Positions 34,197 to 35,522 of a stretch of 64,000 nucleotides of DNA are shown piece by piece. The notes beneath the pieces are model-generated. The model was given only the letters and a program-made list of their open reading frames with translations. It made no database searches and was not told where the DNA came from. The translations under genes were made by a program, and so were the position numbers. Position 1 is the stretch's first letter. Each line of letters starts with the position of its first letter. Origin of the DNA: an uncultured Elusimicrobia bacterium (lineage in GTDB: Bacteria; Elusimicrobiota; Elusimicrobia; 2-01-FULL-59-12); NCBI GenBank assembly GCA_963702895.1, contig OY969767.1, positions 96,001 through 160,000 on the forward strand. Direction: 5' to 3'.

Positions 34197-34280
34197 CCCT
34201 CTCCCGCGGAACGTGGGAGAGGGCGGGGGTGAGGGCAGGTCTACGTCGAAAGGTGAGGTTGTGCCCTCACCCTTCACCCT
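34197..34280. repeat. Left part of a family A repeat interrupted by IS110 element 1 (right part 35441-35467)
   Basis: ...CCCTCACCCTTCACC-CT joins CTCCCACC..GGGAGAGGGG to restore the repeat. Confidence 0.85.
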
Positions 34281-34294
34281 TGTATGTCAAAATT

Positions 34295-34445
34295 CTTCTG
34301 AAGGTAGTAGACCGTCCTACCCTAGGCCCGGTGTTCGCCGAGACTGTGGAGAGCAAGGTCGCTACGTTCAGAATGCGGTTAAGCCCGAACAGTTGCCGGA
34401 GCCGCGCCAGCCGCGAGCTCGGATGATGCAAGGTCGGGCTGTACT
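34295..34445 (+). ncRNA. Predicted bridge RNA of IS110 element 1 (ends approximate)
   Basis: Two stem-closed internal loops carrying guides that match target and donor junctions (see findings). Confidence 0.8.
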
Positions 34446-34461
34446 GAATAAGAGGCCAATC

Positions 34462-35415
34462 ATGTCTGAAGAAATCTGGGCGGGAGTTGATATTTCGAAA
34501 GCACTATTGGAAACGGCAGTTGTGCCAGGCGGCCAACGTTGGCGGACCGCAAACAACCGGCTTGGAATTCGGCAGATCGTGCGTCGTTTGGCGACGATGC
34601 AAGTCGCCGGCGTAGTGATTGAAGCCACGGGCGGTTGGGAAAGACCACTGGTTAAGGCCTTGAACAAGGCGAGGATAGCGACTTCGGTGATCAATCCGCG
34701 ACAGGGGCGCGATTTTGCGAAAGCCACAGGGCGCTTGGCTAAGACCGATGAGATCGACGCCGGTGTGTTGGCCGATTTTGGTCAGAAACTCAAACCCCCA
34801 GCGCGACCACTGGCCGATGATCTGACCTTAGCGCTGCAGGAGCTGATGAATCGTCGACGAGATTTGGTGGAAATGTTGGTCCAGGAGCGCAACCGTCGGC
34901 AGCATGTGTCGGTCGCGATGAAGACTAAGATTGAACAGCACATCGCGTGGCTAGAAGAGCAACTGGATGAACTTGATGATCAGATCGATAAGGGACTGGG
35001 GGACCACCCTGATTTGAGTCAAAAACGGGATACGCTTCGCAGCGTCCCTGGGGTTGGCCCGGTCTTGGGGCGGACCCTCGTCGCGGAACTCCCCGAGCTT
35101 GGGAAATTGAACCGACGCCAGATTGCTAGCCTGGTGGGCGTGGCCCCTCTAAACTGGGATAGCGGTGTCATGCGGGGAACTCGGCATATATGGGGAGGGC
35201 GCTCCAGTGTGCGCTCGGCACTTTACATGGGAGTTTTGACAGCCATCCGCATCAACCCTGTGATCAAAAAGTTCTATCAACACTTGATTGCCAATGGGAA
35301 AAAAACCAAAGTCGCGCTGACAGCATGCATGCGTAAACTTCTGATTATTTTGAACACCATGGTCAGAACCAACACCCATTGGCATTGTGCAGTTCTGGAG
35401 GTTTCGCATGCCTAA
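34462..35415 (+). CDS. IS110 family DEDD recombinase/transposase
   Basis: [37 protein letters not shown] before ATG 34462. Confidence 0.95.
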
Positions 35416-35522
35416 AAGACCCCTATTGACAACACAGTTGCTCTCCCACCTGGCGGCGGGAGAGGGGACTAAAAAGTGCAGCCGGCTTAGACGGACAGAG
35501 CCGCTTTGCTGAAGATTCCGGG

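Follow-up and report, generated by a model that had tools for sequence, protein, structure and literature searches.

The window, the whole 64-kb stretch of DNA that was analyzed (G000:C1:96001-160000, from a genome of 2.72 Mb in a single contig), carries an IS110-family insertion sequence (34281..35442) that is very probably an autonomous IS110-group element working like IS621, with a bridge RNA aimed at a CT-core hairpin repeat. Its boundaries, copies and empty sites, its protein family and catalytic residues, the structure of its RNA, the homology to IS621 and the covariation of guides were established directly, and the element is a clean further example of a mechanism reported in 2024 rather than of a new one. 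All window features given below lie on the + strand, and a scripted string check found every motif and coordinate of the original prediction for this DNA in the sequence.

Counting the CT core once, the element measures 1162 bp. Its ends were set by three unoccupied sites in the genome (G000:C1:689814-689882, 1437876-1437944, and 1963709-1963776), in which the flanks of the window copy are joined via a single CT, bearing out the predicted empty site CTTCACC-CT-CTCCC. Because the flanks meet through one CT at all three sites, the element ends are fixed and only the 2-nt core is common. Occupied sites carry CT at each junction (CTTCACC-CT/TGTAT on the left and ACAGTTG-CT/CTCCC on the right of the window copy) and empty sites carry one CT, i.e., there is no duplication beyond the 2-nt core. 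The ends themselves (TGTATG.. and ..ACAGTTG), read by eye, are not inverted repeats. The genome contains three copies, at C1:130281-131442 (the window copy), C1:1125548-1126709, and, on the minus strand, within C1:179934-181149, with 0 differences across 1162 bp (100% identical). The left flank of the other two copies is CCTAACC-CT, and all three copies occupy an identical position and orientation in one kind of repeat; the expectation that other copies would also be flanked by CTCTCC thus held, all three insertions being at the same spot of this repeat. That three identical copies occupy three cognate sites points to recent and successful transposition within the genome; the element is intact and was probably active recently. 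The window insertion is intergenic, with an 846-bp ORF (ending at 34151) on one side and a convergent 113-aa ORF on the other. Three short contigs from one DNA run, covering 34155-34557, reproduce left junctions of the element, contain no joint of its two ends, and may derive from the source sample.

The recombinase gene (34462..35415, 317 aa) matched PF01548 (70.5 bits, cut-off 29, E 1.8e-19) and PF02371 (63.8 bits, cut-off 21.3, E 1.9e-17), in a layout of an N-terminal DEDD RuvC-like domain and a C-terminal Tnp domain. The best-scoring relative of solved structure was the ISCro4 transposase (PDB 9t56, named from the PDB title; E 4e-42 over residues 6-300), next to the IS621 transposase (E 9e-42). 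In BLASTP against the IS621 protein of L112, an E. coli record annotated "IS110-like element IS621 family transposase," identity was 35%, and residues D10, E54, D96, D99 and S234 aligned with D11, E60, D102, D105 and S241 of IS621, which make up its composite active site (Hiraizumi et al., PMC11208158). Among 34 homologues, E54, D96, D99 and S234 were invariant and D10 was at least 90% conserved. Of 8000 scored candidate relatives, 7977 reached E ≤ 1e-30; the nearest of them (P0002 and P0003), both from other metagenomes, were 68% identical and the others at most 56%, which sets the element apart as an unnamed member within a large subfamily. A search of 400 genomes of its own phylum gave a match at E ≤ 1e-40 in 6 other genomes.

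Upstream of the recombinase gene, the 180-nt leader in the left end folds into two stem-loop domains (MFE −68.6 kcal/mol, z = −3.05 vs. shuffles), as the original prediction required. The predicted bridge RNA (34296..34440; covariance-model match 34283-34456) ends before the ATG at 34462. Its target-binding loop domain (34304..34365) has an outer stem of GTAGT/GCTAC and GACC/GGTC, with closing stems GTAG at 34304 with CTAC at 34362 and GACC at 34310 with GGTC at 34357, and an inner hairpin at 34325-34345. The donor-binding loop domain (34383..34439) has the outer stem GCCCG/CGGGC, within the closing stem AGCCCGA (34382-34388)/TCGGGCT (34434-34440), and an inner stem at 34399-34402/34417-34420. 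IS110-group elements carry a 5' bridge RNA (the IS621 type) and IS1111-group elements a 3' RNA; the position of this structured leader is that of the IS110 group. The target-binding domain carries a 12-nt extension, CGGTGTTCGCCG, in its inner hairpin (34329-34340, alignment A2); this extension is absent from most relatives, and a few have other extensions at that place.

For comparative analysis, 80 metagenome loci were fetched and combined with others to give 91 loci, including three from a single-protein search of genome contigs. A donor-loop signature (15 nt, ≤3 mismatches) was present in 79 of the 91; the other 12, some cut by a contig end and others distant (35–50% identity), were left out. 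The leader alignment comprised 79 rows, i.e., the window leader and 78 loci with enough flank. RNAalifold recovered the outer stems independently, predicting 20 pairs of which 15 show compensatory change. For scoring in the 79 rows, a structure of 26 pairs was composed from the window sequence together with the consensus; it paired in 95.0% of cells, against 81.1% for shuffles and 33.9–47.3% for slid partners; 20 of the 26 pairs had changed on both sides, and on none of the five measures did any of 500 shuffles come up to the observed value. The same 79 rows were used to build a covariance model, R1, which had no IS621 in its training set and matched the IS621 leader end to end (L112 541-712, 28.1 bits, E 2.3e-6, for which the calibration is rough). 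In this alignment the IS621 segments AUCGGGCCU, GUAG, ACAGUAUC and ..UGCAAG, which are the guides LTG, RTG, LDG and RDG in the definition of Durrant et al. (PMC11208160), share their columns with TCCTACCCT, GGAGAG, ACAGTTGC and ATGCAAG of the window element, so that the comparison proposed with the original prediction returned a full-length match with the four guides in register. Within the genome of the window, R1 found the three element copies and nothing else. A scan of 33800-35900 with Rfam 15 at E up to 10 returned no bridge-RNA family; its matches, miRNA and snoRNA models on GC-rich hairpins, were at chance level and were discarded.

The donor loop was confirmed in the form originally described, with its AGCCCGA/TCGGGCT closing stem and both guides. 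The left donor guide (LDG), ACAGTTGC at 34389..34396, is the right end plus the first core base and recurs 8/8 at 35434-35441, within the right end ACAGTTG plus CT core (35434..35442); the 64-kb window contains it nowhere else, against 1.21 occurrences expected. The right donor guide (RDG), ATGCAAG at 34426..34432, pairs 7/7 with CT-TGTAT, including one rG:dT. The IS621 copy of L112 begins ..ATCAGGC-CT/TGTAT and ends ACAGTAT-CT/ACG, so the IS621 donor given with the prediction was right. In relatives, whose ends were located by patterns independent of each locus's own guides, the LDG and the final 7 bases of the right end are identical in 70 of the 71 loci left after dereplication, and in 20 of these both the LDG and the right end differ from the majority; a further LDG mismatch (L100) was dropped at dereplication.

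The target loop, too, agreed with its description, with the GACC/GGTC and GTAG/CTAC stems in place and GGAGAG matched 6/6 to CTCTCC. This right target guide (RTG, 34348..34353) is the reverse complement of CT-CTCC and pairs 6 nt, whereas 41 of 67 relatives pair 7; per-position match in relatives is 89–100% over 7 positions and then 18%. The left target guide (LTG), TCCTACCCT at 34315..34323, has the sense of the target top strand and aligns with the IS621 LTG. It is identical to the flank of the window copy at 5/9 positions (ACCCT) with two rU:dG wobbles, and to the flank of the other two copies at 6/9 with one wobble. The weakness of this guide had been noted correctly, ACCCT and wobbles included, but its attribution to a degenerate repeat target is not needed: across 61 loci LTG positions 4–9 match in 82–93%, and positions 1, 2 and 3 in just 25, 52 and 64%, so that distal mismatch is ordinary in the family. 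Relatives with 5/9 (10 of 66 loci) or 6/9 identities (22 of 66) are frequent, which puts the window LTG inside the family range, toward its weak end; the window LTG also misses position 4, matched in 82% of relatives. These profiles show an effective left guide of ∼6 to 8 bases, core included, and a right guide of 7 nt in the subfamily. Both target guides are tied to their own flanks, the longest LTG match to the left flank averaging 4.68 nt (2.71 permuted) and the RTG match 6.46 (2.77 permuted), values reached in 0 of 2000 permutations in either case.

The published handshake rule (Hiraizumi et al., PMC11208158) concerns the bases next to the core-binding guides. In the window element these are CA in the target loop (34354..34355), the complement of G and T at donor positions 7 and 6, and GT in the donor loop (34433..34434), whose G is the complement of the C at target position 7; at position 7 of a loop's own DNA there is no pairing in either case. 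Among relatives, the target-loop base that follows the core-binding AG is a C in 74/74 loci, opposite an invariant donor G7, and the base after the donor-loop AAG pairs with target position 7 in 61/65 loci, with three more as G-T wobbles; A variants at this donor-loop position face T in 6/6 cases. With its predicted loops, the window element fits both handshake rules. An apparent 1-nt bulge was considered and set aside. Both the LTG (CCTA-CCCT vs. CCTAACCCT) and the RTG (GTG-GAGAG vs. the complement of CTCTCCCAC) resemble a 1-nt deletion, as does L108 (CTACCCT opposite CTAACCCT), and neither guide has family-wide support for it. In 25 relatives with distal mismatches a 1-base register shift gave 23/96 matches, the unshifted register 33/96 and a 2-nt shift 31/96. 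Since the 1-base shift brings no family-wide gain, the bulge is probably a low-complexity coincidence.

A promoter scan of the integrated context (34100-35550) found no sigma-70-like site. A candidate −35 hexamer, TTGACA (35426..35431), lies in the right end and a candidate −10 hexamer, CAAAAT (34288..34293, with TG at 34285-34286), in the left end, and they would form a complete promoter only in the circle. Joined through the core they give TTGACA-18 nt-CAAAAT with TG two bases upstream, a plausible candidate junction promoter that, read by eye, would qualify under the stated rules of the promoter scan. It lies 4–5 nt away from where most relatives and IS621 have theirs, and its geometry is common to only 2/74 loci. 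In most relatives TTGAC (69–82% conservation per base) is placed 4 nt further from the right end, and from the consensus their −10 would be a TATCTT-like hexamer at left-end positions 3–8. The IS621 copy in L112, read from its sequence, has the relatives' geometry (TTGCAG, 17 nt, TATTAT).

We infer transcription, circle formation and present activity of the element. The element would be excised as a circle, in which the right and left ends, joined via the CT core, would complete the promoter (TTGACA and CAAAAT), and the left end would then give rise to a ∼150-nt bridge RNA transcript. With its donor loop (ACAGTTGC and ATGCAAG) this RNA would hold the circle junction ACAGTTG-CT-TGTAT and with its target loop (TCCTACCCT and GGAGAG) the genomic ..ACC-CT-CTCC.., while a tetramer of the 317-aa DEDD/Ser recombinase would swap strands at the CT core. 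Strand exchange at this core would leave no duplication beyond the shared CT. The sites used lie at the foot of the 5' arm of a hairpin that belongs to a REP-like composite repeat.

The target is a CT core within a hairpin repeat, at the 5' base of CTCTCCC-N10-GGGAGAG. In the window, the left part of this composite repeat (family A; 34197..34280) has a hairpin CTCTCCC (34199-34205)/GGGAGAG (34215-34221) followed by GGCGGGGGTGAGGGC ... GCCCTCACCCTTCACC, with the CT core (34279-34280) at its end, and the element sits at the base of the 5' arm of a second host hairpin, CTCTCCC (35441-35447)/GGGAGAG (35458-35464), spanning 35441..35464. The full order is thus CTCTCCC/GGGAGAG hairpin, GGCGGGGGTGAGGGC, loop, GCCCTCACCCT(T/A)(C/A)ACC, CT, and second hairpin CTCTCCC-N10-GGGAGAG. 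Family A can be described as a nested palindromic composite, in which a GGGTGAGGGC/GCCCTCACCC stem is enclosed by two CTCTCCC/GGGAGAG hairpins. Full composites number only a handful in the genome, just three of them empty, and hairpin modules are scattered, with 250 CC-CT-CTCC sites in all. Two other family A repeats are split near the insertion spot by unrelated inserts (..TTTACCCT, insert, CTCCCACC..), one of ∼55 nt at C1:1571694-1571814 (L007/L016) and one of ∼115 nt at C1:647342-647525 (L008/L017), the latter adjoining an IS110-family copy at C1:645878-647239.

Ranking genome sites by the 13-nt ideal of the two target guides failed to single out the sites used. Matches at 12 or 13 positions are absent from the genome; 11/13 is reached by 66 sites and 10 by 576, and the used sites score 9 and 10. 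In addition, 52 ACC-CT-CTCC sites are empty, 19 of them at a hairpin arm and 12 of these also with CCCTCA upstream. Given the 66 better-fitting sites and these 52 empty ones, the guides by themselves do not account for where the element inserted. All three insertions fall among the 15 sites (12 empty plus 3 occupied) in which ACC-CT-CTCC has a hairpin arm downstream and CCCTCA upstream, and none in the other 40; the chance of such a placement, were all 55 sites equal, is about 0.02 (n = 3 insertions). With three events, this class of insertion sites gives a hint that more than the 9 specified base pairs determines the target. One reading, which we consider possible though clearly the less probable, is that the RNA guides make only part of the choice and that the hairpin or repeat context is an added, perhaps dominant determinant, the distal LTG being irrelevant. 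The emptiness of the 66 sites with better guide fit speaks for it together with the 15-site placement, and a target stem-loop has been reported as a second determinant for ISPpu10 (10.64898/2026.03.19.712850). It is weakened by resting on three insertions, by the fact that the repeat context has common sequence past 9 bp, so that sequence and structure are inseparable here, and by seven CCCCACC-CT-CTCCC hairpin sites that have a better left-guide match and are nevertheless empty.

Alternatively, the element could be a decaying or mis-targeted copy, with a target loop tuned to an earlier host's ..CCTACC-CT-CTCC.. and inserting inefficiently here. The guide-ideal site is indeed absent from the genome (0 matches to the 11–13-nt ideal), the right guide lacks one G that relatives targeting CTCTCCC have, and the closest protein relatives among the 8000 scored candidates, from other metagenomes, are those at just 68% identity. 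Against this stand the three identical copies at cognate sites, an intact ORF with conserved catalytic residues, and the comparable distal mismatches of many relatives, and we regard this explanation as unlikely. That the leader is a mere 5' UTR or a translational regulator of the transposase, with no part in DNA guiding, is far less credible still, because its loop nucleotides covary with element ends and flanks across ∼70 relatives and it is homologous to the experimentally validated bridge RNA of IS621. An IS621-like element with a bridge RNA that guides insertion remains the reading that we prefer.

Other IS110 lineages use similar sites. Five metagenome loci (L108, L076, L074, L102, and L057) lie in the same kind of CCCT..CT/CTCCC hairpin site; their proteins are ∼50% identical, and in a quick tree they are not sister to the window element. 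The repeat motif is therefore widespread and has been targeted more than once. Elements at CTCTCC sites do not form one clade on a quick protein tree in which one row (L074) has a wrong flank label, the six labelled rows requiring 5 changes, a count as low as that in 58 of 500 shuffles. The genome of the window itself contains two further IS110-family types with five copies each. The second type (about 56289-57557 of the window, G000:C1:152289-153557; five near-identical genome copies) has the ends CCGGCTTTCGCC.. and ..GGGGTGACG, unlike those of the window element, was not matched by R1, and has the left flank ..gtctggaggg in 3 of 5 copies. The third type (G000:C1:416661, 646697, 671508, 2232926, and 2427493) comprises two subtypes that are ∼83% identical in DNA. 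A more speculative proposal, to which we give perhaps one chance in several, is that the hairpin and not the weak LTG confines the element to family A repeats, by a structure gating like that proposed for ISPpu10, and that unrelated IS110 lineages in several phyla were independently retuned to the same CCCT..CT/CTCCC-hairpin repeat. If true, this repeat would be a shared safe harbour for RNA-guided insertion sequences.

The element adds a compact and, as far as can be judged from sequence, apparently active bridge-recombinase system (1162 bp, a 317-aa enzyme and a ∼150-nt RNA). With three insertions and several empty sites, its guide rules can be read directly from one genome, and the published covariation rules, including the handshake position, were independently reproduced on new sequences. 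The disagreement between guide-predicted and used sites is a small natural data point on what limits off-target insertion beyond pairing.

One of the closest known systems is IS621 of E. coli, for which the bridge RNA was described by Durrant et al. (2024; PMC11208160) and Hiraizumi et al. (2024; PMC11208158). The window element and IS621 share protein architecture and catalytic residues, a left-end bridge RNA that precedes the gene and has two internal loops with the guides in register, a CT core with donor ends ACAGT..-CT-TGTAT, G-U handshake bases in the donor loop, and insertion into a hairpin-type intergenic repeat. IS621 prefers REP sequences. The element is nonetheless not IS621 itself, given only 35% protein identity, other target guides, and other donor bases 6 and 7 (right donor-end heptamer ACAGTTG, vs. 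ACAGTAT in IS621). Its RNA also lacks the extra 5' stem-loop that precedes the target domain in IS621, the inner hairpin of its target loop is 12 nt longer, its contiguous RTG is 6 nt (4 in IS621, extendable to 7), and its candidate promoter hexamers are shifted by 4–5 nt. The metagenomic relatives (P0002 and P0003 at 68%; ∼80 loci at 45–56%) have the same leader architecture and in most cases the same ACAGTTG-CT-TGTAT ends, the 20 loci with a variant right end having a matching LDG, whereas their target guides differ from those of the window element. Among elements of REP-type repeats, ISPpu9 of Pseudomonas putida is an IS110-family member that inserts into repeated intergenic REP-type hairpins. 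ISPpu10, from the same species and family, also inserts in REP-type hairpins, and its target stem-loop is reported to add specificity (10.64898/2026.03.19.712850). Both belong to another host phylum and another repeat, and their likeness to the window element is one of family and type of insertion site.
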